The translations under genes and the position numbers were made by a program. A stretch of 64,000 nt of DNA from Minisyncoccota bacterium. Its GTDB lineage: Bacteria > Patescibacteriota > Minisyncoccia > Minisyncoccales > JAQTPW01. Shown here piece by piece: positions 7,163 through 62,751 of this stretch. The stretch's first letter is position 1; each line of letters starts with the position of its first letter. A model generated the notes under the pieces. That model ran no database searches. It was not told the origin of the DNA and saw only the letters and a program-made list of their open reading frames with translations. The stretch spans positions 35,601-99,600 of the forward strand of contig JAQTPW010000002.1 in NCBI GenBank assembly GCA_028712565.1, written 5' to 3'.

Positions 7163-7474
7163 ATGAAAGAAGTATTTTATAAAGTGTTACAAGTCAATAA
7201 AGAACTACTAAAAGACTATCATGATAGCTTGGGATGGTTTTTAACCTGTCAGTTAGATGAGGGGAAATTACCCGATTACGTCATTTATATCGGTACCAGA
7301 AAGATGGAAAAAGAACTGGAAGGCATTTACCACGAAAAAATGACAAACAAAGAGGCGATAGAGAAATACCTTAACGAACAAGGAATCAAAGTGGAAGAGA
7401 TGGAGCCGCCGAAAGGTATAATCGAAAGGACTTTTGCTAAATTAGGGTTTCGGCGCGGCGGAAAGGTCGGATAA
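7163..7474 (+). CDS. hypothetical protein
   Basis: 103-aa ORF with no motif recognised. Confidence 0.35.
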   Translation: MKEVFYKVLQVNKELLKDYHDSLGWFLTCQLDEGKLPDYVIYIGTRKMEKELEGIYHEKMTNKEAIEKYLNEQGIKVEEMEPPKGIIERTFAKLGFRRGGKVG

Positions 7475-7482
7475 ACTCAAAA

Positions 7483-9691: not shown

Positions 9692-10771
9692 GTGCATTTT
9701 ATGCGATTTTTTAATGAATTTTTAATAAATCCGCTTAAAAAACATAAGGGTTTCTCAAAAGACCCCTTTTTCTATTTAGCAATATCTGCCTTTGTTTTGC
9801 TGGTTTTTGTCTCTTTTTGCCCTAGATTTAGGGATAGAAACGCCATTCCTCTTAGCTCGGGCTCAAGCCGAGTTGCGGGAAGTTCTTCAGATTCCAGCAG
9901 TTTATTTTTAGGGCAGGCAAGTTCCCAGACAGAATCTCCGGATTTTTATTTAGTTCAAAAAAATAGTTTAATGGGGATTGCTCCGCCAGTTATGGTTACT
10001 CCCCAGGTTCTGGGAGCTATTTTGGGAGAAAATGATTTAAACGTTAGAAAAGAGGTAACAGAATATGAAGTGAAAGAAGGAGATACTTTGTCAACTATTG
10101 CTGAAAATTTCGGGATTTCATTAAAAACTCTGCTTTGGGCAAACAATTTGAGCTCTACTTCGAAAATTAAAGCTGGCCAGACGCTGGTTATCTTGCCGGT
10201 TTCAGGAGTAATCCATCATGTAATTTCTGGAGATACGGTATCGGCAATTGCTTTAAAATATAAAGCCAAAGCTTCTGATATAGTCAGCTTTAACGAATTG
10301 GCTTCAGAAGACGATATTTTTATTGGAGATATTTTGATTATTCCCGATGGAGTTATGCCGGTTGTAAAATCCAGCTATATTGCCCAAATCCCAATCGCAT
10401 CCAGCTATTTTATCTGTCCTATCGCCTCCCCCTGCCGGATTACCCAAAAACTGCATTGGTATAACGGAGTGGACTTTAGCCACAGCAAATGCGGGGATTC
10501 AATTTATGCGGCTGCCGGCGGAACGGTCCAGAAAGTAAAATTTGGCTGGAATGGCGGCGGAGGAAATACTATTACGATTTTGCATCCAAACGGAGTCATA
10601 ACAAGCTATGGCCATATTCAGACAGCTTTGGTAAAGGCAGGAGATCAGGTTTATCAAGGCCAAATTATTGCTTTGATGGGAGGCCTTCCCGGAACTTCAG
10701 GGGCTGGAATATCAACTGGCTGCCATTTGCATTTTGCTGTTATCGGCGGCAGAAACCCGTTTGGGTACTAG
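9692..10771 (+). CDS. LysM-domain M23 family peptidoglycan endopeptidase
   Basis: Two LysM repeats (YEVKEGDTLSTIAENFG.., HHVISGDTVSAIALKY..). M23 motifs HNGVDF and CHLHFAV. The ATG at 9701 is an alternative start. Confidence 0.85.
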   Translation: MHFMRFFNEFLINPLKKHKGFSKDPFFYLAISAFVLLVFVSFCPRFRDRNAIPLSSGSSRVAGSSSDSSSLFLGQASSQTESPDFYLVQKNSLMGIAPPVMVTPQVLGAILGENDLNVRKEVTEYEVKEGDTLSTIAENFGISLKTLLWANNLSSTSKIKAGQTLVILPVSGVIHHVISGDTVSAIALKYKAKASDIVSFNELASEDDIFIGDILIIPDGVMPVVKSSYIAQIPIASSYFICPIASPCRITQKLHWYNGVDFSHSKCGDSIYAAAGGTVQKVKFGWNGGGGNTITILHPNGVITSYGHIQTALVKAGDQVYQGQIIALMGGLPGTSGAGISTGCHLHFAVIGGRNPFGY

Positions 10772-10808
10772 AAAATAGATTTAAGATTAAAGATTTAAGA
10801 TTTAAGAA

Positions 10809-10830
10809 AAAACAGAGATTACTCTGTTTT
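10809..10830. terminator. bidirectional hairpin between convergent genes
   Basis: aaaacagag-atta-ctctgtttt, with A/T runs on both sides. Confidence 0.5.
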
Positions 10831-12352
10831 AATTTTCTTTGACTCTGTACATTAAAGCTTCGGCTAAGTGGTCAAAAGAAATATTTTCACAAGACGATAA
10901 ATCAGCTATAGTTCTGGCTACTTTTAAAACTCTATGATATCCTCTGGCTGAAATTTTCCCAGAATCAACGTATTTTCTCATTAAGTCTTCAGATTTTAAA
11001 TCAATTTTGCAGTATTTTTTAATTTGGGGAATTCCCATTTCAGAATTTGTCAAAATTTTTTCATTTTTAAATCTTTCCATTTGAGCCCTTCTTGCCGATT
11101 CTACTCTTTCTTTTATTTTCTGGCTGGAATTTTCTTCGTCGGGAGAAGTTAACTTTTCGTATTTTAAGGGAGGCACATCGATAAATAAATCCATTCTGTC
11201 CATTAAGGGCCCGGAAAGCTTTCTTCTATACATATATATTTGAGAAGGCGTGCAAGTGCATCTTTTTACCGGGTCGTTTAAATACCCGCAAGGGCAGGGA
11301 TTGGTGGCGGCAATTAACATAAAACGGGCAGGTAAGGTCAAAGAAGTTTTGGCTCTTAAGACCGTAACTTCTCCATCTTCCAAAGGCTGTCTTAAGGATT
11401 CTAAGGCATCTCTATGGAATTCCGGAAATTCGTCCAAAAATAAAACTCCTCTGTGCGCCAAAGTAATTTCTCCGGGCCTTGGCGGATTTCCTCCGCCGAT
11501 TAAAGCAACTTCAGAAGAGGTATGATGGGGCGAGCGGAATGGCCGCAAATTAATCAAGGGCTTGCCTTTTGGCAAGAATCCGGAAACGCTATAAATTTTT
11601 GTAACCTCCAAAGATTCTTCAAAGGACAAAGATGGCAAAATAGAAATTGCAGATTTTGCCAAAAGGGATTTGCCTGTGCCCGGAGGCCCGGTAAATAATA
11701 AATTATGCGAGCCGGCCGCTGAAACTTCCAAAGCCCTTTTTGCATATTCCTGGCCTTTTACATAACTCAAATCAATTTGGTATTCGGGTTTTTCCAAAAA
11801 ATCTTCAGTTTTTGTTTCAAAAGGCGCAATATTTAATTTTCCCTCCAAATAAAAAACAGTTTCTTTTAAATTTCCAACAGGAATTACTTTTATTCCTTTA
11901 ATTAAAGCGGCTTCTGGGGCATTTTCTTTTGGCAAAATAATTTCTTCAAAATTTTTTTCTTTGGCGGACAAAGCAAAAGAGAGCGCGCCTTTTACGGGCC
12001 TCAAGTTTCCGTCCAAGGCAAGTTCTCCCAGAAACATTCTTTTTTCAAAGCCAAATTTTGTCTGTTTTGAAGCTGCCAAATACGCCAAAGCAATGGGCAA
12101 ATCATATAACGCCCCTTCTTTTTTAAGGTCAGCAGGAGCTAAAGAAACCAAAACTCTGACTGGCGTGCTGTGCGGAGATTTAAATCCAGAGCTTTTAATT
12201 GCAGAACTTACTCTTTCTCTGGCTTCCTGGACAGCTTTGTCCGGGAGGCCGACAATGGCAAAAACCGGCAGGCCGTAAGAAACATCGGTTTCCACTTCAA
12301 TTATTTGAGCGTCAAGGCCGACAACAGCTGCAGAGAAAACTTTTGAAGGCAT
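10829..12352 (-). CDS. comM: YifB/ComM family Mg-chelatase-like ATPase
   Basis: Lon-like N-terminal domain. Walker A GPPGTGKS, then LFLDEFPEF and a C-terminal ChlI-like region. Full-length at 507 aa. Confidence 0.9.
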   Translation of the reverse strand: MPSKVFSAAVVGLDAQIIEVETDVSYGLPVFAIVGLPDKAVQEARERVSSAIKSSGFKSPHSTPVRVLVSLAPADLKKEGALYDLPIALAYLAASKQTKFGFEKRMFLGELALDGNLRPVKGALSFALSAKEKNFEEIILPKENAPEAALIKGIKVIPVGNLKETVFYLEGKLNIAPFETKTEDFLEKPEYQIDLSYVKGQEYAKRALEVSAAGSHNLLFTGPPGTGKSLLAKSAISILPSLSFEESLEVTKIYSVSGFLPKGKPLINLRPFRSPHHTSSEVALIGGGNPPRPGEITLAHRGVLFLDEFPEFHRDALESLRQPLEDGEVTVLRAKTSLTLPARFMLIAATNPCPCGYLNDPVKRCTCTPSQIYMYRRKLSGPLMDRMDLFIDVPPLKYEKLTSPDEENSSQKIKERVESARRAQMERFKNEKILTNSEMGIPQIKKYCKIDLKSEDLMRKYVDSGKISARGYHRVLKVARTIADLSSCENISFDHLAEALMYRVKEN

Positions 12353-17927: not shown

Positions 17928-19685
17928 TTAATTGAGCTTGCAGTCAATCTGAAACCAGTTTTCGGGACGCCAACCGCCAAAATTCGGATTCATAAGCCCA
18001 GGAATTGTGAGAACCGTATTAACGATTATCCAAGCCGCATAAATTATTATCAAACCCACTGCCACGGAAGTTAATATTGATTTTCCTTGCGCTACTAATT
18101 TCGGATTTACTCCCCCAAAAATAAGCATAGCTCCTCCTGATACTACTAATAATACTGCAGCCAAGGGAACAATTCTAAATAAAATAAAATCTAATATCCT
18201 TTTGAACATTACAAAAAAATGGCAGAATTGGCAAGGGCAATCAGGCGTTCCGCAGGGAACCAGCCCTTCTTTGGGGCAATCACTGTAAGTGGGATTGTTA
18301 GGTTCGCCGCCGCCCGATGGCTTGCAGGTTCCTGGGATTCCTACTGCCAAATTCTCGCATTTTGCACTTTTGCATTCCGCGTTGTCATAACATGCCCCGC
18401 CGTTTAATGAATTAGTTGTGTCAAAACAAGCATTGGAAACTGCGCTGCATTCTAAATCTGCGTCTTCACAGCATTTATTATTTGTTGAGTCGCAGGCTTC
18501 TCCTCTGTTTTTGCAAGTCGTGCTGAATTTTTCACACGTCCCCGGATTATTCGGAGTTGGCGAACCGTTGCATTTTTTGCTTTTGCATTCTGCATTATCA
18601 TAACAGTCTTCTCCCGTATCTTTGGCAGCGCTGGGATTATAACAAGCTCCAGATTGGGCGCTGCAATAAGTGCTGTCGCAATCAATGGGCAGGGCGCAGC
18701 TTTCTCCTCTGTCTTTGGTTGTGCAATTCGCTTTGCAGGATTTCTGGCCAGTTGTAGAATTTACACAACAGAAAGTATTATCTGTTTCGCAGCAGGGCTT
18801 TGTGTCGGAACAAGTTTCATTTGTTTTTGCGCAGGAAGTTGTGCAATTTTTTTTGCAGGTTTTTGCGCCGGTGGTTGTATTAAGGCAGCATACAGTGCCA
18901 TCTTCTTCACAGCAGTGTAAATCATCAGAGCAGGTATCATTGGTTTTTGCGCAATCTGGCCCGCATTTGCACACGCCATTTTTACATTTTCCTCCTTCGG
19001 TGCCGCAGGATTTATTGCAGCAGTTATTATCGCAAGAAGTGCCTAATTTAAGAAGACAGCAAAAATCTTCCCCGGCAATGCATTCAGGAGAATCTTCGCA
19101 GCTATATTCCCATCTTCGGCTGCCGGAGCAGCTGTCGATATCTGGGCAGCCAATTAAAGGGTTGCGGCAATCGTCAGAAGTGCAGACACAACTACCGGCG
19201 ACGCAAGAACCGCCTGCACTGCCGCAAGAAGCGGCGCAACAAGAATTGTCGCAGCCAGCTTTTTCAAGAGAACAGCAGGTTTGGTTTGGATAGCCAGCGC
19301 ATTTTGTTGCGCTTGTTATGCATTGGTAGGACCATTTATCCGAACCGCTACAACTTGTAACAGTTGGGCATTCATGGCCCGGGTCGTTGCAATCTGGTTC
19401 TGGATTGCAAACGCAGTTGCCGCCTATACAAGAGCCTCCCGGCCCGCCGCATGTTTGAGAGCAGCAGCCGCTGTCGCAGCCGTCATTAATAGTGGTGACG
19501 CAGCAAGTCGGATCATAAGAACCGCAAGCTTCAGGGTCTAATATACAGGATGATTGCCAGCTGGACTCTCCGGCGCAGCCGGAATCAGGGCAGCCATCGC
19601 AAGATGCAAAAACAGAATTTATTATAAAAAAACTGAAAAATAAAATTAGGGACGAGGTTAAAAAAATAGGTAAATATTTTTTCAT
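17928..19685 (-). CDS. very Cys-rich secreted modular protein with C-terminal CPR-type pilin-like (TrbC/VirB2-like) two-TM domain
   Basis: Signal peptide followed by about 82 Cys by my hand count, arranged in three kinds of internal repeats. The C-terminus reads GLVPCGTPDCPCQFCHFFVMFKRILDFILFRIVPLAAVLLVVSGGAMLIFGG..KSILTSVAVGLIIIYAAWIIVNTVL. The local GC is visibly higher than in neighbouring genes. Confidence 0.8.
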   Translation of the reverse strand: MKKYLPIFLTSSLILFFSFFIINSVFASCDGCPDSGCAGESSWQSSCILDPEACGSYDPTCCVTTINDGCDSGCCSQTCGGPGGSCIGGNCVCNPEPDCNDPGHECPTVTSCSGSDKWSYQCITSATKCAGYPNQTCCSLEKAGCDNSCCAASCGSAGGSCVAGSCVCTSDDCRNPLIGCPDIDSCSGSRRWEYSCEDSPECIAGEDFCCLLKLGTSCDNNCCNKSCGTEGGKCKNGVCKCGPDCAKTNDTCSDDLHCCEEDGTVCCLNTTTGAKTCKKNCTTSCAKTNETCSDTKPCCETDNTFCCVNSTTGQKSCKANCTTKDRGESCALPIDCDSTYCSAQSGACYNPSAAKDTGEDCYDNAECKSKKCNGSPTPNNPGTCEKFSTTCKNRGEACDSTNNKCCEDADLECSAVSNACFDTTNSLNGGACYDNAECKSAKCENLAVGIPGTCKPSGGGEPNNPTYSDCPKEGLVPCGTPDCPCQFCHFFVMFKRILDFILFRIVPLAAVLLVVSGGAMLIFGGVNPKLVAQGKSILTSVAVGLIIIYAAWIIVNTVLTIPGLMNPNFGGWRPENWFQIDCKLN

Positions 19686-19708
19686 TTATTTTTTAAAAAT
19701 TTACTAGT

Positions 19709-19748
19709 GGGACGTAAATAAATTTTTTGTGAAAAATTTACACGTCCC
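19709..19748. repeat. 40-nt hairpin element, copy 1 (copy 2 at 63574-63613)
   Basis: gggacgt-aaat-aaattttt-tgtg-aaaaattt-ac-acgtccc. The two copies differ by compensatory base-pair changes. Confidence 0.6.
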
Positions 19749-19785
19749 TACCACGTGAAAATTTTGCCAAAGCAAACTTTTTACG

Positions 19786-19860
19786 TGGTGCCCCTGCCAG
19801 GATTTGAACCTGGACTTCAGCGTCCGAAGCGCTACGCGATATCCATTTCACTACAGGGGC
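19786..19860 (-). tRNA. tRNA-Arg(TCG)
   Basis: Acceptor GCCCCTG/CAGGGGC, anticodon loop CT-TCG-GA, T arm CCAGG-TTCAAAT-CCTGG. CCA is encoded. Confidence 0.8.
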
Positions 19861-20001
19861 GCAGGGGATGATTTATTTAATTTTATCAAACAGATCGCCC
19901 TTCGACAAGCTCAGGCACCCCGAATCGTATATCGAAGGATGGAAAAAACAATGCTTTTGAGATAGTATTAAATATAATACTGATCTACGAATCGAATCCG
20001 A

Positions 20002-20394
20002 ATGCTGCGAATAGATAAAAAATTGTTATATCCCGATCTGTCATACAAAATTTGCGGTTTATGTTTTGATATTCATAACAAACTAGGCAGGTATCGTAAT
20101 GAAAAGCAATATAGCGATGCTTTGGGAATTTTATTAAAAGAGAACAAAATAAAGTATTCAAAAGAAATGCCTCTTCCCGTATCTTTTGAGGGTGAAAAAG
20201 AGAGAAGGAATATACCTGATTTTATAATAGACGAAAAAATAGTTTTAGATTTAAAAGCAAAACCATTTACGACCAGAGAAGATTATTTCCAAATGCAGAG
20301 ATACTTAAAAGAAAGCGGCAAGGAGTTGGGATTAATAGTTAATTTTCGGCAAAAATATCTGTATCCCAAAAGGATATTAAAAACAAAAAGTTAA
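20002..20394 (+). CDS. GxxExxY family protein (PD-(D/E)xK-like minigene)
   Basis: LSYKICGLCFDIHNKLGRYRNEKQYSDAL...DFIIDEKIVLDLKA...GLIVNF matches my recollection of the GxxExxY family pattern. Confidence 0.8.
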   Translation: MLRIDKKLLYPDLSYKICGLCFDIHNKLGRYRNEKQYSDALGILLKENKIKYSKEMPLPVSFEGEKERRNIPDFIIDEKIVLDLKAKPFTTREDYFQMQRYLKESGKELGLIVNFRQKYLYPKRILKTKS

Positions 20395-20439
20395 ATTTGA
20401 ATCATTCGGATTTTATTTGAATCATTCGGATTATATTTT

Positions 20440-22475: not shown

Positions 22476-22548
22476 CGGGGAGTAGCGCAACGGTTAACGC
22501 GCACGGTTCGGGACCGTGAGATTATGGGTTCAATTCCCATCTCCCCGA
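22476..22548 (+). tRNA. tRNA-Pro(CGG)
   Basis: Acceptor CGGGGAG/CTCCCCG, anticodon stem CACGG/CCGTG, loop TT-CGG-GA. Confidence 0.8.
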
Positions 22549-22551
22549 CTC

Positions 22552-22622
22552 GGGCCTATGGTCCAGCGGTAAGACGCCGCATTCGCATTGCGGAAACGGC
22601 AGTTCAAATCTGCCTGGGTCCA
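22552..22622 (+). tRNA. tRNA-Ala(CGC)
   Basis: Acceptor GGGCCTA/TGGGTCC with the G3:U70 identity pair. Anticodon loop TT-CGC-AT. Confidence 0.75.
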
Positions 22623-22629
22623 TCAAAGT

Positions 22630-23037
22630 ATGAGTTCAAGAGAAACCGGAAATATCGGCGAAAAAATCGCGGAAAATTTTCTCAAAGAAAAAGGTTATAA
22701 AATTTTGGATAAAAATTATTCTTTTAGAATTTTTGGCCCGCAAAAAGGAGAGATTGATATTATTGCCAAAAAAGACGGAGTGATTTCTTTCGTCGAAGTA
22801 AAAACTTTAGCTTACAGAGGACAGTCATCTGTAAGCTCTGTTTCGGGGGAGCTTTCGAATCCGGAAATTAAAGTTGATTTTATAAAAATGCAAAAGATTA
22901 TAAAAACCGGGCAGAGTTGGTTAATGAAAAACAAAATTCCCTTAGATTCGCCTTGGCGAGTTGATGTGGTGGCAGTAGTAATTGACGAAAAAACCCAAAA
23001 AGCAAAAGTCCGGCATTTGGAAAATGCAATATATTAA
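22630..23037 (+). CDS. YraN family (UPF0102) endonuclease-like protein
   Basis: GNIGEKIAENFLKEKGYKIL..NY....GEIDIIAKK.....FVEVKT. I trimmed the start to the ATG at 22630 because the upstream part of the listed ORF overlaps tRNA-Ala. Confidence 0.8.
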   Translation: MSSRETGNIGEKIAENFLKEKGYKILDKNYSFRIFGPQKGEIDIIAKKDGVISFVEVKTLAYRGQSSVSSVSGELSNPEIKVDFIKMQKIIKTGQSWLMKNKIPLDSPWRVDVVAVVIDEKTQKAKVRHLENAIY

Positions 23038-23150: not shown

Positions 23151-25754
23151 ATGCCTTTTACTTGGATAATTATAAGCTATCTTTTGGGTTCCATCCCCTT
23201 TGGTTTTTTGATTTCCAAATTTTCCGGAAAAAATATTTTAGAAATCGGCTGGAAGAAAACTTCCGGCTCCAATGTTTATAAAAACGTCGGGAAACTCCAA
23301 GGGATTTTAACTGGAATTTTAGATATTGCAAAAGGATATTTGGCAGTTTGGTTAGTGCAAAGATTGGGGTTTTCCCCTGAAATTCAGATTTTTTCCGGAG
23401 TCGCAGCAATTTTAGGCCATAACTGGTCATTATTTTTAAAATTTTCCGGGGGCAGAGGAATCGGAACTTTTGCCGGCGCTTTTTTGGCTTTGGCTCCGAA
23501 AGTTTTTGGCTTTTCTTTGATTCCTTTTGTCGCGCTCGCTTTGGTTTGGGATGCTGCAATAGGCACCCTGGCCTTTTTTGTTGCGGCTATTTTTCTTTCC
23601 GCACATTTCAATGAATTTAGGTTATCCGGCGTTTTTACGCTTTTGTCTTTAGGGCCTATTTTGATTAAAAGATTAAGCCCTGTTTCAGAAATTAAAAATT
23701 CAAAAGACAAATTTTCCTTGATCAGGAACCGGCTGATTTTTGACAATGACCAATTTTTAAGAAGTTTTAGGATAAATAGGATTTTTCAGCAGAAAAAAAC
23801 GGGCAAAATTTCTTTAGCTTTTAAAATTATAACTGCCCCGTTTCTTTTGCCGCCAAAATATGGCTGGAGGATTGCAAAATTCGGGGTGAATGCTGCAAAA
23901 AAGCCTCTGGAAAAACTAATTTCCCAAAACAGAGAAAATGTCGTTACTGAACTTACTGTTGAGGATTTTAAAAAAATGATAGTGGCTTCTTCCCAGAAAA
24001 TTGTTTTGCACCAGGAAGAAATAAATAAAATTAATGTTTTTCCCGTTGCCGATAAAGATACAGGTTATAATATGGCTGCCACTTTATTGGGGATTGAAGG
24101 AGTGATCTCCCAAAAAAAATACTCAACCCTTCGCGAACTAACCGACGATATCAAAGAAGCTGCAATGATAAATGCCAGAGGAAATGCTGGAATGATTCTT
24201 ACTGGATACTTAATTGAAATTTTAGACAGAATAAAGCATTTAGAATCTATTGATGCGTTTCACTTGGCTTTGGCAATGAAAAGAGGAATTAAGGCCGCCC
24301 GATTTTCTATAACCTCGCCGGTGGAAGGCACTATTTTAGATGTAATAAAAGCGGCAGGAAACAAAGCTTTTGAAATAGCAAAATTAAAAAATTCAGAAGA
24401 AAAAAAATCAGAAAAAAATATAATCAAGGTTTTGGAAGCCGCCTATTCTGCGGGAGAAATCGCGTTAAAAGAAACTAAAGAAAAATTAGAAGTTTTAAAG
24501 CAAAACGACGTAGTGGACGCAGGAGGTCTTGGGTTTTTGAAGATTTTAGAGGCTTGGGTTGAGAGTTTAAAAGGGATTGCTCCTGCTCCAAGAGTTGAGG
24601 TCACTTCTCCTGTTTCTACACCCGAGGTATTAAGGGAAGGATTAAAATTTAAATATGAAGTTGTTTTAAGCTTTAAAAACGAAAAAGGCATTGGAAAAGA
24701 AGAATTAAGAAAAGAGCTTTCTTTCTTTGGGGATAGTTTGGAAATTTTGGAATTGGAAGGAAAAATAAAATTTCACATTCATACTAACCAGCCAGATTAT
24801 ATTGTTGAGAAATTTAAAGGTTCTCTAGATTTAGAATACAGGGTAGAAGACATGGAAGAAGAATTAAGCAAAATTAAGAAAAGACCTTTGGGTTTGGTGG
24901 TTGATGAAGTTGCAGATTTGCCCAGAGAATTTCTGGAAAAAAATAAGATTGAAGAAGTCCCTTTTACGACAAGGTTTCCCGATGGAGAGATGGCAATTTC
25001 CAAAGAAGAAATTTATACAAAAATGAAGGAAGCATTGATAAAAGGCAGCCCCTTGCCTACTACTTCGGCTCCCACTTTCCAAGAATTTCTTGATGTCTAT
25101 CAAAGGGCTTTCAAAAAATTTGAGAAAATTTTAGTAATTACCGTTTCTTCAAAACTATCAGGAACCTACAGTTCGGCAAGAATTGCCAGGTCTGTTTTCA
25201 AAAAACCGGAAAAGTTAAATATATATGTTTTCGATTGTTTTACAGCCGAGGTTGGAGAGGGGTTAATTGCCCTTCGAGCGCAGGAATTAATTTCTGCAGG
25301 GAAAAAATTGGAAGAAGTTGTCGAAGAATTAAAAAAGTTTTGCCCAAAAATTACTTTAATCGGATGTTTAGATGATTTTAGATATGTTGTCCACGGAGGA
25401 AGAGTCCGTCTGCCAAAAATATTTGTTGGCCCGATCTTTCTTCTGCAAAAAATAGGAATCAGAGTGCTAGTCGGGCTAAAAAACGGCAAGGTGGGTTTTT
25501 TTGGCATAAATTTGGGAAAAGATGTAGCTAAAATTTTGGCAGAAGAAATTTCAAAACAAAGCAAAGGAAAAGAAATAGCAGTGGCTATTGCCCATGCAGA
25601 CAATTTGAAAGCCGCCGAGGATTTAAAAGTGGAATTAGAAAAGGAGCCAAAAGTAAAAGTTTTATTTATTTCTTCAGTGTCCCCTGTTGTGGCGACTCAT
25701 ACGGGTCCCGGCGCCTTGCTCGCCGCTTTTTATTCAAAAAACATTGACAAGTGA
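23151..25754 (+). CDS. triple-domain fusion: PlsY-like acyl-phosphate:glycerol-3-phosphate acyltransferase + Dak2 (FakA/YloV-type kinase) + DegV (FakB-type fatty-acid binding)
   Basis: Residues about 1-195: YLLGSIPFGFLISK..LDIAKGYLAV..LGHNWSLFLKFSGGRGIGT (PlsY pattern, with a diverged GSGN motif). Residues about 270-475: NVFPVADKDTGYNM...NARGNAGMILTG...PVEGTILDV...VVDAGGLGF (Dak2). Residues about 500-570: GDSLEIL..KIKFHIHTNQP (FakA middle region). Residues about 575-867: VVDEVADLP..TTSAPT..VSSKLSGTYSSA..HGGRV..ATHTGPGALL (DegV). Confidence 0.8.
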   Translation: MPFTWIIISYLLGSIPFGFLISKFSGKNILEIGWKKTSGSNVYKNVGKLQGILTGILDIAKGYLAVWLVQRLGFSPEIQIFSGVAAILGHNWSLFLKFSGGRGIGTFAGAFLALAPKVFGFSLIPFVALALVWDAAIGTLAFFVAAIFLSAHFNEFRLSGVFTLLSLGPILIKRLSPVSEIKNSKDKFSLIRNRLIFDNDQFLRSFRINRIFQQKKTGKISLAFKIITAPFLLPPKYGWRIAKFGVNAAKKPLEKLISQNRENVVTELTVEDFKKMIVASSQKIVLHQEEINKINVFPVADKDTGYNMAATLLGIEGVISQKKYSTLRELTDDIKEAAMINARGNAGMILTGYLIEILDRIKHLESIDAFHLALAMKRGIKAARFSITSPVEGTILDVIKAAGNKAFEIAKLKNSEEKKSEKNIIKVLEAAYSAGEIALKETKEKLEVLKQNDVVDAGGLGFLKILEAWVESLKGIAPAPRVEVTSPVSTPEVLREGLKFKYEVVLSFKNEKGIGKEELRKELSFFGDSLEILELEGKIKFHIHTNQPDYIVEKFKGSLDLEYRVEDMEEELSKIKKRPLGLVVDEVADLPREFLEKNKIEEVPFTTRFPDGEMAISKEEIYTKMKEALIKGSPLPTTSAPTFQEFLDVYQRAFKKFEKILVITVSSKLSGTYSSARIARSVFKKPEKLNIYVFDCFTAEVGEGLIALRAQELISAGKKLEEVVEELKKFCPKITLIGCLDDFRYVVHGGRVRLPKIFVGPIFLLQKIGIRVLVGLKNGKVGFFGINLGKDVAKILAEEISKQSKGKEIAVAIAHADNLKAAEDLKVELEKEPKVKVLFISSVSPVVATHTGPGALLAAFYSKNIDK

Positions 25755-25902: not shown

Positions 25903-27216
25903 ATGTTTGATCTCAAAAATTTTACGTCAGCCATCTCGCAAATCGCAGAAGAAAAAGGAATATCTTATGAAAAAGTAGTTGAAAGCATAGAATCTGCAAT
26001 AGCTGCGGCTTATAAAAAAGATTACGGAGAAAAAGGCCAGATAATAAAAGCGAAACTCGATCCCCAATCGGGCGAAGTTAAGTTTTGGCAGGTAAAATTA
26101 GCAGTTAATAAAGACATGATTTATTCTGAAAAGGAATTGGAGGAATTAAAAGAAAAAAGCTTACAGGCAGAAAATGAAAAACAAGAGGGAGAAAAAGAAG
26201 GAGAGAAAAAAGTCCGTTTTAATCCCGAAAGGCATATTATGCTAGAAGACGCCAAAAAAATAGATCCAAAGATAAAAACCGGCGAAGAGTTGGAAACCCT
26301 GCTCGAAACCAAAGCCGACTACGGGAGAATTGCAGCCCAAACAGCAAAACAAGTGATTTTACAAAAGATCAGGGAGGCAGAAAGAGAAACGATTTTAAGC
26401 GAATATAAATCAAAAGAAGGAGAATTAATTTCAGGCATTGTCCAGAGGATTGAAGGAAGAAATATATTTTTTGATATTGGGAAAACTTTGGGAGTTTTAA
26501 CAAGAGAAGAGCAAATTCCCGGGGAATTTTACAGGCCGGGCCAGAGATTAAAGGTTTATATTTTAAAAGTTGAAGAAAGCCCAAAGGGGCCGTTGGTGTT
26601 TTTGTCGCGCGCTTATCCAAAATTAATTTCAAAACTTTTTGAATTGGAGGTTCCGGAAGTATCTTCCGGCTCTGTGGTCATTAAATCAATTGCCAGAGAA
26701 GCAGGTTCAAGGTCAAAAATTGCCGTTGCCTCAACTGTTGAAGGAGTAGATCCTATTGGTTCTATGGTTGGGCAAAGAGGAACAAGGGTTATGGCAGTAA
26801 TTAACGAGTTGGGCGGAGAAAAAATTGATATTATTGAATGGTCGGATGATCCGCAAAGATTTATTGCCAATTCCTTGTCCCCTGCAAAAGCAGTAGAAGT
26901 AAAAATTCTTCCCAAAAACAAGGCCTTAGTTATCATACCTGATGACCAGCTGTCTTTGGCTATTGGCAAAGAAGGGCAGAATGTGAGATTGGCGGCAAAA
27001 CTTACCGGCTGGAAAATTGATGTCAGAAGCCCGGGGCAGGTTGAAAGCGAAGCAGCAGAAGCGAATGAAGTTGATAAAGCGAGTAAAGCGGATGAAGAAA
27101 AAGAAGAGATTAAAGAGGCCAAAGACGATAAAGAGATTAAAAAAGAGGAAAAAACGAAAGAAAAGCCGGCTTCAAAAAAGAAAAACTCAAAAACAAAGTT
27201 AAAAAATAAAAAATAA
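25903..27216 (+). CDS. nusA: transcription termination/antitermination factor NusA
   Basis: N-terminal domain, S1 domain and two KH domains (GQRGTRV.., GKEGQNVRLAAKLTGWKIDV), followed by a K/E-rich tail. Confidence 0.9.
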   Translation: MFDLKNFTSAISQIAEEKGISYEKVVESIESAIAAAYKKDYGEKGQIIKAKLDPQSGEVKFWQVKLAVNKDMIYSEKELEELKEKSLQAENEKQEGEKEGEKKVRFNPERHIMLEDAKKIDPKIKTGEELETLLETKADYGRIAAQTAKQVILQKIREAERETILSEYKSKEGELISGIVQRIEGRNIFFDIGKTLGVLTREEQIPGEFYRPGQRLKVYILKVEESPKGPLVFLSRAYPKLISKLFELEVPEVSSGSVVIKSIAREAGSRSKIAVASTVEGVDPIGSMVGQRGTRVMAVINELGGEKIDIIEWSDDPQRFIANSLSPAKAVEVKILPKNKALVIIPDDQLSLAIGKEGQNVRLAAKLTGWKIDVRSPGQVESEAAEANEVDKASKADEEKEEIKEAKDDKEIKKEEKTKEKPASKKKNSKTKLKNKK

Positions 27217-27231
27217 GCTAATTAAAAACCT

Positions 27232-29238
27232 ATGTCATACTTTCCAATTATCGTTTCGGTTTTTTCGCTTTTATTCACTTATTTTTTAATCAGAGAAATC
27301 CAGAGAAAGCCATCGGGCGAAGGAAAACAAATAGGGATTTCTGCAGCCATTAAAGAAGGAGCTAAATCTTATTTAGCGAGACAATATAAAACAATTGCTT
27401 TAGTCGGGACGGTTTTATTTATAATTCTTTGGGCGATACCAAATTCCAAACCAGATTCCAATTTCGGATTCAAAACAGCTGTGGGATTTTTGGTCGGAGC
27501 TTTGGCTTCCGGGCTTTCCGGATATATCGGCATGATGGTTTCAACTTCAGTTAATGTAAAAGTTACTGAAGCCGCAAAAAAAGGGCTAAAAGAGGCATTT
27601 TCTTTATCTTTTAAGGGAGGTTCAGTCACGGGATTTTTGGTAGTGGGGTTGGCGCTTTTGGCAGTTTCTGGATTTTATTATTTAACTAAAGATTTAAAAT
27701 ATCTGGTGGCTCTTGGCTTTGGGGGATCTTTAATCTCGGTTTTTGCAAGATTGGGCGGAGGCATTTACACAAAAGCTGCAGATGTGGGAGCGGATTTGGT
27801 AGGAAAAGTAGAAAAAGGAATTCCAGAAGACGACCCAAGAAATCCAGCAGTAATTGCCGACCAAGTTGGAGACAATGTCGGGGATTGCGCAGGCATGGCA
27901 GCAGATTTATTTGAAACTTATGCAGTGACCGCAATTGCCGCAATGATTTTGGGGAATTTATTATTTCCTAATTCCCAGTTAGCTTTGCTTCCTTTAATTT
28001 TGGGAGCTATTTCAATTTTAAGTTCTATTATCGGAACCTTCTTTGTGCGGCTTGGCAAATCTCAAAATATAATGGGTGCCCTTTACAAAGGATTAATAGT
28101 TTCAGCAATTTTGGCAGCAGTGGGTTTTTATTTTGCCATAAATCAAATTACGATCCCTGATGCAAGTTTCACAAAAATTAACCTTTATTTTGCAGCAATA
28201 ATTGGATTGTTAATTACTGCCGGCATGGTTTTGATAACAGAATATTTTACTTCAAGGAAATATCAGCCGGTAAAATCAATTGCTCAAGCTTCTGAATCAG
28301 GCCACGCCACAAATATAATTACGGGTTTGGCAGTAGGGATGAAGTCAACTGCTCTCCCGGCAATTTTAATTTCTCTCGGCATTTTAGTAAGTTATAATTT
28401 GGCCGGCCTTTATGGAATAGCAATTTCTACAATGAGCATGCTTTCTTTGGCGGGAATTATTGTGGCAATAGATGCTTACGGCCCCATCACCGACAATGCC
28501 GGCGGCATTGCTGAAATGTCAGGTTTGCCAGATGAAGTCAGAGAAGTTACAGATGCCTTGGACGCAGTCGGAAACACAACAAAAGCTGTTACCAAGGGTT
28601 ATGCCATAGCTTCTGCAGGATTGGCGGCCTTGGTGCTTTTTTCTTCATATACTCAGGATTTATTGAAATCGGAAAGAAATTTTGATTTTGGGCTAAATAA
28701 TCCAAAAATAATAGCCGGTCTGTTAATTGGCGGGCTTTTGCCTTATCTATTTGGATCCTATGCAATGTCCGCAGTTGGAAGGGCGGCGTCAAAAGTCGTT
28801 GATGAAGTCAGAAGGCAGTTTAAGGAAATTAAGGGCTTGATGGAAGGGGAAGCAAAGCCAGAGTACGGGAAAAGCGTAGACATTGTTGCAAAAGCCGCAA
28901 TAAAAGAAATGTTATTGCCTACTTTACTTCCTATTTTGACTGTAATTTTAGTGGGGTTTGTTTTAGGGCCCGAAGCTTTGGGAGGAGTTTTAATTGGTTC
29001 AATTATTACCGGCCTTTTTGTAGCAATTTCTATGACTTCAGGCGGGGCTGCTTGGGATAATGCGAAAAAATATATTGAGGCGGGGAATTTAGGAGGCAAA
29101 GGGTCTTTTGCCCATCAGGCGGCAGTAACAGGAGATACAGTCGGAGATCCTTACAAAGATACAGCAGGGCCTGCTATTAATCCCATGATTAAAGTATTAA
29201 ATATTGTAGCTTTGTTAATTGTTAGTTTTTTGATTTAA
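27232..29238 (+). CDS. hppA: membrane-bound ion-translocating pyrophosphatase
   Basis: 668 aa, multi-TM. Motifs [33 protein letters not shown] and [15 protein letters not shown]. Confidence 0.95.
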
Positions 29239-29242
29239 AAAA

Positions 29243-29266
29243 GCACCGAGTAATTTTACTCGGTGC
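29243..29266. terminator. bidirectional hairpin between convergent hppA and the 29256-29942 gene
   Basis: gcaccgagta-attt-tactcggtgc. It overlaps the last codons of the minus-strand ORF. Confidence 0.55.
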
Positions 29267-29942
29267 AAACGTTTAATCCGAAATTCTTAGCTCTTTTTAT
29301 AAAACTTTCTTTGTCTTCGTCGGGCCACGGAAGATACTTTATATAGTCCGGACTTTTGAACGCGTAGAGCAATAAATCAATTATTTGTTTTGATGAATTG
29401 CTAAGGCGTACCACCGTTTCTTTTTTTGCCGCGAAAATCTGGCCGGTTATTATTGTTGGTATATTTGGATAATAAACATTAACTAAGTTCACCTGATGGT
29501 TATTTTCGCCGCTTATCATTATTTTTTCTTCAGATATAATCCAGCCATACGAGATGCAAGTCGGGGAATACAGGAAAAGGCAGGGTGTGAGATGTGATAA
29601 TCTTTCGAAAGTCATTATCTGGCCTTCTCCGAAAAAAAGTCCGAGTACGGGAATTTTAGAAAAGAATTTATTTATGGGAGTTTTCCGGAGTAAGTATCCG
29701 GTTGACAAAAAAATTAGCAGCAAAATCAAGCTTGCGACGCCAGGATAAATTATTTTCCCCGGGAAAAAAAGATGGCCGATTTCCCCGCCTATTGCCTCGA
29801 GATTAGCGAAAGCATACCACACAATAATAATAAAAATAGCGATTGGCAACCAGAAAATAAAACCATATAAAAGATAACCAGCCTGGTTTTTAAAGAACTT
29901 TTTCATCGGTTTGCCCTCCTCATCTGCTAAATAGTTAAACAT
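29256..29942 (-). CDS. DUF502-like membrane protein
   Basis: Two N-terminal TM helices. The C-terminal pattern VYYPNIPTIITGQIF...V..L..S....IDLLL resembles DUF502 as I recall it. Confidence 0.45.
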   Translation of the reverse strand: MFNYLADEEGKPMKKFFKNQAGYLLYGFIFWLPIAIFIIIVWYAFANLEAIGGEIGHLFFPGKIIYPGVASLILLLIFLSTGYLLRKTPINKFFSKIPVLGLFFGEGQIMTFERLSHLTPCLFLYSPTCISYGWIISEEKIMISGENNHQVNLVNVYYPNIPTIITGQIFAAKKETVVRLSNSSKQIIDLLLYAFKSPDYIKYLPWPDEDKESFIKRAKNFGLNVCTE

Positions 29943-43948: not shown

Positions 43949-44320
43949 ATGAAAAAAATTCTTTTCATTGAAGACGAATCAGCTCTTCAAAAAACCTTTA
44001 GCGACCTTTTATCAGCCGCGGGATTTGAAATGATTTCTGCCCTAGACGGGGAAATCGGGCTGGAGTTGGCCCAAAGAAAAAATCCAGATTTGGTTCTATT
44101 GGACCTTGTTTTGCCAAAAATGCATGGCTTGGAAGTTTTAAAAAAGCTGAAAGAAGACCCAAAAACGAAAGAAGTACCGATTATTATTTTAACTAATTTG
44201 GAAGGAATGGCAGAAGTTGAAAAAGCGTTAGAACTGGGAGCTACAACTTATTTGGTAAAATCCCAATACGATTTAAAAGAAGTAGCAGAAAAAATAAAAC
44301 AAATTTTAAACAATAAATAA
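43949..44320 (+). CDS. single-domain response regulator (CheY/PilH-like receiver)
   Basis: DE...DLVLLDLVLP..G.....K pattern. 123 aa with no output domain. Confidence 0.85.
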   Translation: MKKILFIEDESALQKTFSDLLSAAGFEMISALDGEIGLELAQRKNPDLVLLDLVLPKMHGLEVLKKLKEDPKTKEVPIIILTNLEGMAEVEKALELGATTYLVKSQYDLKEVAEKIKQILNNK

Positions 44321-46068: not shown

Positions 46069-46075
46069 AATTAAA

Positions 46076-47296: not shown

Positions 47297-47300
47297 ACAG

Positions 47301-49170: not shown

Positions 49171-49174
49171 ATAT

Positions 49175-50461: not shown

Positions 50462-50496
50462 AGCGCAGAACATGAAACGCAAAGCAAAAATAAAAT

Positions 50497-60322: not shown

Positions 60323-61333
60323 TTAGTCTTTTTGGCTAGGAAAAGGAGAAATTACTTCTTTTAACTCTTGGATAATGGCATTTACAGCAATTTGCCCGCC
60401 AAAATAAGAGAGATGAATGCCGTCTGAAAGCCGGGCTGACATATATTTTCCATTTTGGTCTGGCAAAAACGCGGTATAGTCGCCGTTTTTGTCGGTAAAT
60501 AAGTACCAAAGCGGCACAAAGTGCGCATTCTTTACCTTTTTTGCCTCATTTTCGTATATAGAATTCAGCTTTTGCATCTTTTGAGAATAGGTTTTGTTCT
60601 CCATAATGGGAAATCCCACCCAAAAAGCCGTGATATTTTTATCTGCAAAGATATGTAAAAAGTCAGAAACTCGATGTTCGTATTCTCTAAACCATTCATC
60701 GGTTCCGTATTTGAAAATTATATTTTTTCCATCTGCGGCGGCAACCGAAAAGGATTGGGCGTCGTTAGAGCCCAGCATAATAATGACAATATTGGGGTTA
60801 AATTGTGAAATCAGGGTTTTAGCTTGTGAATTCCAGTCAAAGTAATCAGGTCTAGAAAGTCCGCTGGAAACCACCCCTTTTCTAAGAGCAGTTATATCAT
60901 TATAAGCCAGTAAGGTTCTTTCCAGAGTATCCCCGACGCCGCCGTAAACCGCAATGAAAGAATCGCCGATTATTAAGATTCGGTAAGGCGGTTTAAGTTT
61001 TTGTATGGGTTCGGGCAGTTCTTCTTTTGTGCTTGTGGCGGGAAGTTGAGAAAATACTATTGGTGACATTTTAATTTTTGACCAGAACAGATTTTCTTTT
61101 TGGAAAAAACTGGAAAGCCCCAAGTCCGCCTTTATTTTTTCAGAAGTTTTGGCAAAAGCTAAAGAAACATGGTTGAATGCGTCGTATTTTTGGCTTTGCG
61201 GCTTTTCCCAAAGAATGACCTTTTTCGATTCGTAAAAAGAAACAAATAAAAAAATAAGGGAAAAGAGAAGAATTGCTATTTTAGGATTAGATGACCTTTT
61301 TTGTAAAATATTTTCGTTTTCCATAATTATCAA
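60323..61333 (-). CDS. SGNH/GDSL-family hydrolase partner of the MBOAT acyltransferase
   Basis: ILIIGDSF, LGSNDAQ and DGIHLS blocks. The stop/start overlaps the upstream MBOAT gene. Confidence 0.7.
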   Translation of the reverse strand: MIIMENENILQKRSSNPKIAILLFSLIFLFVSFYESKKVILWEKPQSQKYDAFNHVSLAFAKTSEKIKADLGLSSFFQKENLFWSKIKMSPIVFSQLPATSTKEELPEPIQKLKPPYRILIIGDSFIAVYGGVGDTLERTLLAYNDITALRKGVVSSGLSRPDYFDWNSQAKTLISQFNPNIVIIMLGSNDAQSFSVAAADGKNIIFKYGTDEWFREYEHRVSDFLHIFADKNITAFWVGFPIMENKTYSQKMQKLNSIYENEAKKVKNAHFVPLWYLFTDKNGDYTAFLPDQNGKYMSARLSDGIHLSYFGGQIAVNAIIQELKEVISPFPSQKD

Positions 61334-62751
61334 AAGCTAAAATATATGAAAGAAGGCAAGATATCCGGACTTAATTCAAAAAGCAGGATAATTGCCAAGA
61401 TAACGAATGTAATCCAAGGGAACAGGGATAATTTTTGCTGGAAATCAGTTAATTTTTTAGTAATTTGCTTTTCAAACAGAAATAAAAGAAAACCCAAGGC
61501 CATTACGGCAATAATATAAATTTGAAACGGCTCCACTATTTTCCCAAAGTTAAATAAATTTTTTATTAAAATAATCCCGTTTCCGAATGTTTCTGAGCGA
61601 AAAAATATCCACGAAAAAGAAATAAAATTAAAAGTTAAGGACCAATTTAAAATATTTTTCCATTTTTTCTGGGGAAGGGTTTGAGAAACTTCTTTTTTCC
61701 TGTCCGAATAAATGTGGGTTACGGCCAAACCTATTCCTTGGAGAAATCCCCAAAAAATAAAGTGGGTAGCTGAACCATGCCAGAGGCCAACCAAAATCAT
61801 AGTTATCATCAAATTTAAATATTGCCTTATTTTCCCTTTTCTGCTTCCTCCCAGAGGAATATAAATATAGTCCCTGACCCAATTGGAAAGGGTAATATGC
61901 CATCTGCGCCAAAAATCTTGAATATTTTGAGACATATAAGGCATATTAAAGTTAATCGGAGACTTAAAGCCCATCAATCCCGCAAATCCGATAGCTAAAT
62001 CTGTGTAGCCGCTGAAATCAAAATAAATGACTAAAGAATAAGCAAAAATTGCTAAAAATATTGCCAAAGACGAATGGTTTTGGGGAACGGCAAAAACGTC
62101 ATCAGTAAGGTTTAAAGCTAAATAGCTGGAAATCACTAATTTTTTGAATAAGCCCAATAAAACTAAAGAAACATTTCCATATAAATTATCTATTTCTTTT
62201 GCTCCCCCATTTTCTAATTGGGGGAGGAATTCGTCAGCTCTGGATATTGGACCTGACAATAACTGCGGGAAAAAAGCAACATAAATTGAGAAATCGAGAA
62301 TTGATTTGCAGGGTTTTATTTTTTTTCTGTAAACATCAATAATGTAAGAAATCGTTCTGAAAATATAAAAAGATAAGCCTACTGGCAAAATGATTGCCAA
62401 AACCGGCAAACTAATGGCCAATCCCATTTTCCCTAAAAATGATTCAATTGAAACTCTGAAAAAATCATAATATTTAAAAAGTCCCAAAACCAATAGATTG
62501 GCAGCTATTGAATAGATGAATAAGATTTTTTTAAATTTAAAAGAGTCTTCACTAATAAATTTTCCTGCAAAAAAATTAAAGACCGAAACTCCAAAAATTA
62601 TTAGTAAAAATCTAACATCCAGGATTGAATAAAAATAATAACTTGAAGCAAATAAAAATAGCCGCCAGATAAGGGGCCAGCGTTTTAAATACCAGTTTAA
62701 AATCAAAACTACGGCAAAAAATAGAAAAAATTCAAAAGTCGTAAACGTCAT
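61330..62751 (-). CDS. MBOAT family O-acyltransferase (AlgI/PatA/DltB-like)
   Basis: Polytopic membrane protein. FWRRWHITLSNWVRDYIYIPLGGSR and a conserved His (GLWHG). Confidence 0.9.
   Translation of the reverse strand: MTFTTFEFFLFFAVVLILNWYLKRWPLIWRLFLFASSYYFYSILDVRFLLIIFGVSVFNFFAGKFISEDSFKFKKILFIYSIAANLLVLGLFKYYDFFRVSIESFLGKMGLAISLPVLAIILPVGLSFYIFRTISYIIDVYRKKIKPCKSILDFSIYVAFFPQLLSGPISRADEFLPQLENGGAKEIDNLYGNVSLVLLGLFKKLVISSYLALNLTDDVFAVPQNHSSLAIFLAIFAYSLVIYFDFSGYTDLAIGFAGLMGFKSPINFNMPYMSQNIQDFWRRWHITLSNWVRDYIYIPLGGSRKGKIRQYLNLMITMILVGLWHGSATHFIFWGFLQGIGLAVTHIYSDRKKEVSQTLPQKKWKNILNWSLTFNFISFSWIFFRSETFGNGIILIKNLFNFGKIVEPFQIYIIAVMALGFLLFLFEKQITKKLTDFQQKLSLFPWITFVILAIILLFELSPDILPSFIYFSF

Follow-up and report, generated by a model that had tools for sequence, protein, structure and literature searches.

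How bacteria without fatty-acid synthesis build membranes from scavenged fatty acids is the question raised by one gene in a 64,000-nucleotide stretch of contig JAQTPW010000002.1 from a Minisyncoccota bacterium; the whole stretch is referred to below as the window. The gene suggests an answer, as it encodes a single chain in which a PlsY-family membrane domain is followed by a linker, a FakA-type Dak2 kinase domain, the FakA middle domain (FakA_M), and a DegV domain of the FakB type. The Candidate Phyla Radiation (CPR), or Patescibacteria, comprises a large share of bacterial diversity. These tiny, host-dependent bacteria have no fatty-acid synthesis and are believed to draw on the lipids of their hosts. 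In CPR genomes, Probst et al. (2020, PMC7242380) found PlsY together with PlsC but did not find PlsX, and the source of acyl-phosphate was left open. The fusion, which is one cloneable protein, is a candidate for that source in PlsX-less CPR.

We propose a membrane-tethered fatty-acid kinase, built as a single chain, that feeds acyl-phosphate to the PlsY-family acyltransferase attached to it, and assign this reading a probability of roughly 0.6. The analysis establishes which domains are present, that catalytic residues are conserved, that the fusion is real and how far it has spread, its topology, and its linkage to genes of the CDP-alcohol pathway. From these we infer that the protein is active as a kinase, passes acyl-phosphate on in cis, and is active as an acyltransferase; the acceptor is likewise inferred. 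Among these, the kinase function appears the most secure, acyl transfer less so, and glycerol-3-phosphate (G3P) as acceptor the least; G3P would be a default guess rather than a secured assignment.

The fusion and its relatives

The open reading frame (ORF) runs from an ATG start to a stop codon at 25752-25754, encodes 867 amino acids (aa), and contains no internal stop (Table 1). Four Pfam domains were found above their cutoffs: G3P_acyltransf (PF02660; aa 8-160, 104 bits, cutoff 24), Dak2 (PF02734; aa 298-470, 85 bits, cutoff 27), FakA-like_M (PF21645; aa 499-572, 41 bits, cutoff 25), and DegV (PF02645; aa 581-860, 161 bits, cutoff 27). An initial annotation, made from the sequence alone, had described an uninterrupted 867-codon ORF of three parts and had called for profile searches with PlsY, Dak2, and DegV. 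These searches, in Pfam and NCBIfam, bear out the three parts as PlsY family, FakA-type Dak2 with its middle domain, and DegV. All the motifs it quoted were found, and most are invariant in 119 homologues.

The initial annotation had also asked for support across the two junctions. NCBI carries the identical 867-aa protein (P0001) as 'MAG: glycerol-3-phosphate acyltransferase' from Candidatus Pacebacteria, on a 163.6-kb contig, which agrees with the predicted CPR origin. The identical 867-aa ORF is present in a 3.5-kb contig of an independent Logan assembly of run SRR22315508. Both junctions are in frame across 119 homologous clusters from NCBI, JGI, ENA, and Logan assemblies. The family alignment keeps every segment, including the inter-domain linker, and a hidden Markov model (HMM) of the linker matches most fused homologues. 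In one species (L017 among the fetched loci), a split form was found, in which a PlsY-like gene is followed by an adjacent Dak2-M-DegV gene in the fused order; such a form might suggest that an assembly chimera or sequencing error had joined separate plsY, fakA, and fakB genes. However, the independent assembly carries the same ORF, and the 119 clusters from four data sources share one continuous frame and a conserved linker. Moreover, unfused genomes order the kinase before PlsY, opposite to the fused order, so simple read-through cannot create the fusion. An assembly or frameshift artefact is thus ruled out as a vanishingly improbable explanation, and the fusion is confirmed as real.

The same set of four Pfam domains occurs, at full length, in at least 119 further clusters at 90% identity; these show 52-73% identity, and all belong to Patescibacteria. 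When one genome was scanned for each species, the full fusion occurred in about 20 Patescibacteria species; carriers are labelled Nealsonbacteria, Paceibacterota, Parcubacteria, and Wildermuthbacteria. Among 1.84 billion representatives at 50% identity, the full four-domain form was found in only about 3-4 (P0050, P0114, P0124, P0126/P0275). The search returned 591 matches at E <= 1e-30. Among the top 150, more than 100 were proteins of about 590-600 aa whose entire length aligns with aa ~268-860 in the same domain order, and all seven of those tested consist of Dak2, FakA_M, and DegV. These chains (for example, P0130-P0267, and loci L019 1325-3133 and L020 5284-7170) share 27-41% identity with the fusion, contain neither PlsY nor FakA_C, and bear no annotation beyond 'DegV family protein' or 'DAK2 domain-containing protein'. 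The single-chain Dak2-M-DegV kinase-carrier is therefore a widespread, apparently uncharacterised architecture, and the added PlsY-family domain is a feature specific to the Patescibacterial fusion family.

The kinase module

In a PDB sequence search, FakA of Streptococcus suis (7W7H_A) matched aa 267-571 with an E value of 1.6e-30. The crystal structure of Staphylococcus aureus FakA_N defines the nucleotide and Mg2+ ligands (PMC9136124). Six of them, SaFakA N32, D38, D40, T41, N82, and D185, correspond to N295, D301, D303, T304, N345, and D456 of the fusion, and all six are invariant in the 119 sequences. The predicted Dak2 domain also superimposes on SaFakA_N with Foldseek template-modelling (TM) scores of 0.92-0.93. 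In the middle domain of FakA, Cys240, His282, and His284 form a triad, and a C1H3 zinc site is present (PMC9136124, PMC10848957). The His pair is kept as His542-x-His544 in 119/119 sequences, the counterpart of H282/H284 in S. aureus and H289/H291 in S. suis. The matching nucleotide/Mg and His residues have been shown to be essential in FakA of both species.

At position 503, the site of the catalytic/zinc Cys (C240/C244), 101 of the 119 sequences have Glu, 11 have Asp, and 7 have Cys. This change probably represents a swap of metal ligand rather than a loss. Scores against full-length profiles fall below the cutoffs for both YloV (TIGR03599; 222 against 396 bits) and FakA (NF038248; 134 against 975 bits).

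The carrier domain

DegV and FakB structures matched aa 580-863 in the PDB sequence search (E 1e-26 to 1e-17), and the NCBIfam DegV profile TIGR00762 gave 191 bits against a cutoff of 99.7. S. aureus FakB1, the Thermotoga DegV protein TM841, and others showed Foldseek TM scores of 0.82-0.85 to the domain. The FakB1 equivalog score was 101 bits, against a cutoff of 350. The carboxylate-site residues are widely kept among the 119 sequences: T638 in 106, S639 in 110, S670 in 112, R751 in 117, and H850 in 101, with Tyr in 16 at the last position. Arg173 of FakB1, the counterpart of R751, is essential for catalysis, and FakA_C has no such Arg. The conservation of both kinase and fatty-acid-binding residues gives good support for a fatty-acid kinase that carries its substrate domain tethered in one chain.

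The YloV/FakA profile is matched only up to position 302 of its 530, and FakA-like_C (PF13684) gave no match in Pfam or NCBIfam. FakA_C is thus missing, and its place is taken by a genuine FakB-type DegV domain; this point was absent from the initial annotation. FakA_C itself has a DegV-like fold that binds FakB. Subramanian et al. assigned it the function of FakB docking and found that FakA_NL, which lacks FakA_C, is an active kinase whose Km for FakB is about 10-fold higher. By analogy, a covalent tether plausibly substitutes for the docking domain in the fusion. Free FakB is an exchangeable subunit that shuttles between the membrane, FakA, PlsX, and PlsY; here, in contrast, the carrier is fused C-terminally to the kinase. 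The architecture therefore bears on the debate over the function of FakA_C, which a tether would make dispensable.

The C-terminal domain could mainly be a FakA_C-like docking platform for free FakB rather than the substrate carrier, a role compatible with the reading proposed here. The DegV-like fold of FakA_C would fit this role, as would the Foldseek alignment of the entire soluble module, which runs collinearly with FakA over about 630 columns. In about one third of the fused loci (L001, L003, L007, L008, L014, L018, and L058), a stand-alone DegV gene also closely precedes the fusion. However, the fused domain is a full-length DegV far above its cutoff, with no FakA-like_C match, and keeps the carboxylate-binding Thr, Ser, and His together with the catalytic Arg that is absent from FakA_C; in addition, the 64-kb window contains no free DegV gene. 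A mainly docking role is unlikely on this evidence, and we retain the domain as the probable carrier. Coordinates of the free DegV genes are 7520-8476 (L001), 9980-10876 (L003), 456-1364 (L008), 9965-10870 (L014), 9943-10836 (L018), and 7402-8283 (L058). These FakB-like genes occur although the fused kinase is without the FakA_C that docks free FakB. In P0200, a weak FakA-like_C match overlaps the protein's own DegV domain, in keeping with a view of FakA_C as a degenerate DegV.

The PlsY-family domain

Domain HMMs were run over 61 fetched loci, with 10 kb on either side. At least three PlsY-family types were recognized in Patescibacteria by their signatures: canonical (GSGNxGxTN...HRENLKR), type B (GTGNVGAMN...IKQWP), and type A (GW[RK]KTSGSN...IKRLSP), to which the fused domain belongs. 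Up to three paralogs occur, often in tandem (L020 422-8483; L042-L044 and L046, ~9.9-11.2 kb; L027-L030, L033, L036, and L040). In a rough neighbor-joining tree, fused and unfused type-A domains are interleaved, a pattern compatible with one fusion event or several, and type A stands apart from canonical PlsY. Aquifex PlsY (5XJ5) matched aa 6-174 of the fusion in the PDB sequence search (E 4.7e-19 to 4e-18), and AlphaFold2 (AF2) predicted seven hydrophobic helices with per-residue confidence (pLDDT) mostly of 80-96.

The initial annotation had aligned TSGSNVYKNVG with the canonical GSGNxGATN motif. The spacing common to all PlsY paralogs rules out that register. HMMER, the family-profile alignment, and a multiple alignment of the three paralog types agree on an ungapped one, in which canonical G34-S-G-N-x-G-A-T-N-V-x-R45 corresponds to G33-W-K-K-T-S-G-S-N-V-Y-K44; the true counterpart of GSGNxGATNV is GWKKTSGSNV. 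The motif is GW[RK]KTSGSNV throughout the family, and G33, W34, K36, S38, G39, N41, and V42 are invariant in the 119 sequences. The initial annotation had called motif 1 diverged; a decayed PlsY motif is ruled out by this invariance. Type A appears instead to be a distinct enzyme under strong selection.

Residue functions in Aquifex PlsY allow the two substrate sites to be compared (PMC5700162). G3P phosphate is clamped by Ser35, Arg45, Lys104, and Asn180, the 2-OH of G3P is bound by Ser142 and His177, Asn37 is the oxyanion residue, and the Gly-rich segment 100-107 forms the phosphate hole; mutagenesis showed Ser35, Asn37, His177, and Asn180 to be critical for G3P binding or catalysis, and the Thr41->Ser variant retains about half of the activity. 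In type A, His92 is represented by His90 (115/119 sequences), the GGKG of the phosphate hole has become an invariant GGRG with Lys104->Arg102, and N91, W92, S93, G100, G101, R102, and G103 of the same loop are invariant in the 119 sequences. Motif 1 shows Ser35->Trp34 and Asn37->Lys36, both invariant, as well as Thr41->Ser40 and Arg45->Lys44. According to the profile alignment, Ser142 probably corresponds to the invariant Thr139. Equivalents of His177 and Asn180 are absent owing to a 3-residue deletion common to types A and B, and an invariant KRLSP comes after the seventh helix instead. The acyl-phosphate site (His90, Ser40, GGRG) is therefore preserved, while the G3P pocket is remodelled.

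With critical canonical residues missing, the domain might serve as a membrane anchor or acyl-phosphate receiver without transferase activity of its own, in which case the tethered kinase would discharge its acyl-phosphate into the bilayer, where a separate PlsY would use it. Canonical PlsY is indeed present in related genomes, and Dak2-M-DegV stands alone in hundreds of clusters. An anchor, however, would not be expected to keep about 30 polar and glycine residues invariant and clustered in both active-site loops. The free form of type A is conserved as well, at a fixed place in the genome, which implies a function of its own. A purely structural role is very unlikely in view of these features, and an attached acyltransferase remains our preferred reading.

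The arrangement of charges bears on where the kinase module lies. Residues 173-262 contain 21 Lys and Arg against 6 Asp and Glu, and stand-alone type-A proteins end in ...LIRNRLIFDDD..LRIKRI.KKLTK, which matches the first part of this tail. The active-site loops and tail together contain 27 Lys and Arg against 7 Asp and Glu, and the opposite loops contain no Lys or Arg. This clustering indicates that the kinase module is cytoplasmic, on the active-site face of the modelled membrane domain. Mean pLDDT was 82 for the full-length AF2 model and 87 for the soluble module; disordered linkers were predicted at aa 216-261 (pLDDT <50), 479-498, and 571-575. A docking geometry for Dak2 and DegV was sought in both models, and nothing usable was obtained.

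Gene neighborhoods and the acceptor

The genomic position of type A is conserved. In nearly all loci that extend far enough, nusA lies directly downstream of type A, whether fused or free, and in many loci an H+-pyrophosphatase gene follows nusA. Upstream, the order CCA-enzyme gene, yraN, type-A PlsY is frequent, and the window shows this arrangement too. Genes of the CDP-alcohol pathway are linked to the fusion in L058 and L059, where it starts 15 bp after a CarS-like/CTP_transf_1 (CarS/CdsA-like) cytidylyltransferase gene and has genes for a CDP-alcohol phosphatidyltransferase and a free DegV as neighbors. The unfused loci L020, L047, and L051-53 show the order DegV, CDP-OH transferase, CarS-like, Dak2-M-DegV, type-B PlsY, (other genes), type-A PlsY, nusA. 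In Patescibacteria, Dak2-M-DegV chains adjoin a type-B PlsY gene and are not fused to type A. As unfused genomes cluster Dak2-M-DegV, DegV, and PlsY paralogs, joint function is supported by Rosetta-stone logic, and the neighborhoods argue strongly, through guilt-by-association, that the family helps to assemble phospholipids from fatty acids activated by the kinase.

In L019, L047, and L051-53, type B and type A are separated by genes for a geranylgeranyl-reductase (GGR)-like protein, the prenyltransferase UbiA, a polyprenyl synthase, and PcrB (GGGP-synthase family), in an island shared with CarS-like, CDP-alcohol phosphatidyltransferase, DegV, and Dak2-M-DegV genes. This archaeal-type ether-lipid set spans 3804-7853 in L019, 12268-16246 in L047, and 8883-12905 in L051, with equivalent positions in L052 and L053; partial sets occur in L037 and L045. 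In L051 and L052, there is a 4-bp overlap between the stop of PcrB and the start of type A. Villanueva et al. had noted one Parcubacteria genome that contains both GGGPS and DGGGPS. PcrB, UbiA, and polyprenyl-synthase genes were absent within 10 kb of any of the roughly 20 fused loci and from the window. A search of the 64 kb for PlsC, CdsA/CarS, CDP-OH transferase, GGPPS, and a second PlsY likewise found none, and scans for promoters and terminators gave nothing above shuffled background.

These neighborhoods suggest that the same kinase module may serve an acyl-phosphate-dependent acyltransferase whose acceptor is not G3P. Candidate acceptors are PcrB-made polyprenyl-glyceryl phosphate, which would yield a mixed ether/ester lipid, glycerol-1-phosphate (G1P), and lysophosphatidate, in a second acylation independent of acyl carrier protein (ACP); canonical PlsY, where present, would perform the G3P step. 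The PcrB-type A adjacency and the CarS-family (CDP-archaeol synthase) gene adjoining the fusion would fit an ether-lipid intermediate or another non-G3P acceptor. A G3P pocket remodelled beside a kept acyl-phosphate site, the separate clade of type A, and its tandem arrangement with PlsYs that pass TIGR00023 (L042-44 and L046; a canonical copy also in L020) are in line with this, and ACP or PlsX to feed PlsC has not been reported in CPR. On the other hand, the ether-lipid genes are missing within 10 kb of the fused loci and from the window, and Arg45->Lys, Lys104->Arg, and Ser142->Thr139 are conservative changes that still fit a glycerol-phosphate head group. In addition, the PlsYs of L042 and L044 pass TIGR00023 and yet lack His177 (ALRENI, with Leu at the site; GSKSSTATN in motif 1), which makes His177 loss less diagnostic in this phylum, and canonical PlsY already tolerates both G1P and G3P (PMC13400652). 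A non-G3P acceptor is therefore the main alternative to our reading, though a less probable one.

A broader form of this idea would make type A a new acyltransferase acting on the PcrB product or lysophosphatidate and Dak2-M-DegV the ancestor of two-component FakA/FakB. We consider this combination speculative and rather unlikely. If it is true, Patescibacteria would build complete, possibly hybrid ether/ester, phospholipids without ACP, CoA, or PlsX, and FakA_C would be a degenerated carrier domain.

Proposed mechanism and comparison with known systems

Under the reading proposed here, a kinase feeding its attached acyltransferase, a free fatty acid from the inner leaflet would bind the C-terminal DegV domain. 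Dak2, using ATP and two Mg2+, would then act with the His-x-His and Glu of the FakA middle domain to phosphorylate the carboxylate and give acyl-phosphate. As the carrier is covalently attached, FakA_C, which docks free FakB in Firmicutes, would be dispensable, and the carrier itself would have taken its position. The kinase module would be held on the cytoplasmic side, beside the N-terminal 7-transmembrane domain, by flexible linkers of about 45 and 20 residues. The PlsY-family domain, with its acyl-phosphate site retained, would transfer the acyl group to a phosphorylated glycerol-type acceptor and yield a lysophospholipid. The protein would thus supply acyl-phosphate in CPR bacteria that have neither PlsX nor type II fatty-acid synthesis (FASII) and could not otherwise make it.

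Several points weigh against this proposal. The domain scores 96.9 bits against the PlsY equivalog TIGR00023, below the cutoff of 137.2; canonical CPR PlsYs pass it (L020, 166 bits; L044, 148 bits), and the type A of L020 scores 106 bits. The four residues critical in Aquifex PlsY are replaced or absent. Type A and canonical PlsY occur together in at least five species, with the two in tandem in L042-44 and L046 and all three types in L020, and this co-occurrence implies that type A may not be a G3P acyltransferase. Closely related type-A domains without a kinase within 10 kb also exist (for example, L022 and L023). In the kinase module, Glu503 takes the place of the catalytic/zinc Cys. Inter-domain geometry has low confidence, with AF2 predicted TM scores of 0.46 for the full-length protein and 0.58 for the soluble module, and a root-mean-square deviation from FakA of about 26 A, which leaves the hand-off in cis without structural support. 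The initial annotation had proposed complete fatty-acid activation and a first acylation step, from G3P to lysophosphatidic acid. The G3P reaction is not established, given the separate clade, the sub-cutoff score, the four changed residues, and the tandem arrangement with a bona fide PlsY. Type A is not simply 'the' PlsY.

The fusion resembles the FakA and FakB of Firmicutes (S. aureus; S. suis 7W7H; FakA_N 7RM7; FakB1 6ALW) in its Dak2 ligands, the His-x-His, and the Thr, Ser, His, and Arg of the DegV carboxylate site, and by analogy acyl-phosphate would be the expected product. It differs in being one chain instead of two, in the replacement of FakA_C by the carrier, in the Glu or Asp that most members have for the catalytic/zinc Cys, and in its PlsY-family membrane anchor. 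With canonical PlsY (5XJ5, TIGR00023), it shares the seven transmembrane helices, the Pfam family, the His92 equivalent, the Gly-rich phosphate hole, the D..KG motif, and cytoplasmic active-site loops; type A has its own motif 1 and KRLSP for HRxN, forms its own clade below the cutoff, and in the fusion carries about 690 extra cytoplasmic residues. The Dak2-M-DegV chains of about 595 aa have no PlsY-family domain. Single-chain dihydroxyacetone kinases (DAK), named in the FakA literature as an evolutionary analogue, likewise join an EDD-fold substrate domain to Dak2 in one chain (DhaK-DhaL), but the Citrobacter DAK has the reversed order, a triose substrate, and neither a middle nor a membrane domain.

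The initial annotation knew of no described fusion. In one paragraph, Li et al. 2017 (PMC5700162) described two PlsY-DegV fusions, UniProt A0A0P6X7I7 and A0A0P6XUK7, from the thermophilic Chloroflexi (Anaerolineae) Bellilinea caldifistulae and Thermanaerothrix daxensis, and proposed channeling of the labile acyl-phosphate from FakB to PlsY. Compared by published description, in which those proteins have two domains, both architectures join DegV to the C-terminus of a PlsY-family protein, and the Patescibacterial family adds Dak2 and the middle domain between them. In the openly accessible literature, no account was found of the four-domain form with its kinase, of type A as a paralog, or of CPR Fak systems. 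The channeling idea of the initial annotation is reasonable, and the protein offers a natural system for testing it. The analysis also exposes a set of PlsY paralogs to which no function has been assigned; the lipid island that holds them includes ether-lipid genes of archaeal type and so bears on the 'lipid divide'.

Other features of the window

Table 1. Positions of the fusion, its domains and motifs, and other genes in the window.
Feature	Position	Strand	Basis
Complete ORF (PlsY-like, linker, Dak2, FakA_M, DegV)	23151..25754	+	ORF list
PlsY-family 7-transmembrane domain, paralog type A (aa 1-176)	23151..23678	+	PF02660 104 bits, 5XJ5 match, AF2 helices
Motif-1 loop GWKKTSGSNVYKNVGK (aa 33-48), counterpart of canonical GSGNxGATNVxR	23247..23294	+	
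Acyl-phosphate site GHNWSLFLKFSGGRGIGT (aa 89-106)	23415..23468	+	conservation in 119 sequences
Invariant KRLSP (aa 173-177), replacing canonical motif 3 HRxNhxRh	23667..23681	+	alignments
Basic amphipathic tail and disordered linker (aa 177-262)	23679..23936	+	pLDDT, charge count, linker HMM
Dak2/FakA_N ATP-Mg binding domain (aa 263-478)	23937..24584	+	PF02734, conserved ligands, Foldseek
FakA middle (catalytic/dimerisation) domain (aa 499-572)	24645..24866	+	PF21645, HMMER alignment to 7W7H_A
DegV/FakB-type fatty-acid-binding domain (aa 578-862), at FakA_C position	24882..25736	+	PF02645, TIGR00762, Foldseek
Upstream genes: tRNA-Pro (22476-22549), second tRNA call (22552-22622), UPF0102/YraN gene	22476..23037	+	conserved gene order
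Downstream genes: nusA (25903-27216), H+-pyrophosphatase gene (27232-29238)	25903..29238	+	ORF list, fetched loci
DUF459/GDSL-like protein gene	60326..61333	-	adjoins MBOAT gene
MBOAT membrane O-acyltransferase gene	61333..62751	-	adjoins DUF459/GDSL-like gene

Upstream of the fusion, ARAGORN called a tRNA-Pro(CGG) and, 2 bp on, a tRNA-Ala(CGC) (22476-22622, plus strand). The second call overlaps the annotated TTG start (22588) of the YraN/UPF0102 ORF, and the real YraN start is therefore probably further downstream. Downstream, the H+-pyrophosphatase gene is followed on the minus strand by a hydrophobic 228-aa ORF (29256-29942) that has no Pfam match; in L058, the gene directly after the H+-pyrophosphatase gene encodes a VTT/DedA-family membrane protein.

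Genes lie on the minus strand up to 19.7 kb and on the plus strand from 20.0 kb. At ~18000-20400, this switch coincides with the minimum of the cumulative GC skew and a local rise of GC content to 0.447, a possible replication-origin-like strand switch. At 44320-53032 on the plus strand lies a run of co-oriented ORFs, with two large members (582 and 411 aa) and, after them, at least three small ones with prepilin-like N-termini (..FTLIE[IL]L..), and their sequences suggest a type IV pilus or competence-like system. T2SSE and T4SS_pilin genes were also found near the fusion in L058 and L060. Finally, the MBOAT and DUF459/GDSL-like genes form a pair that resembles those for O-acylation of polysaccharide or teichoic acid.

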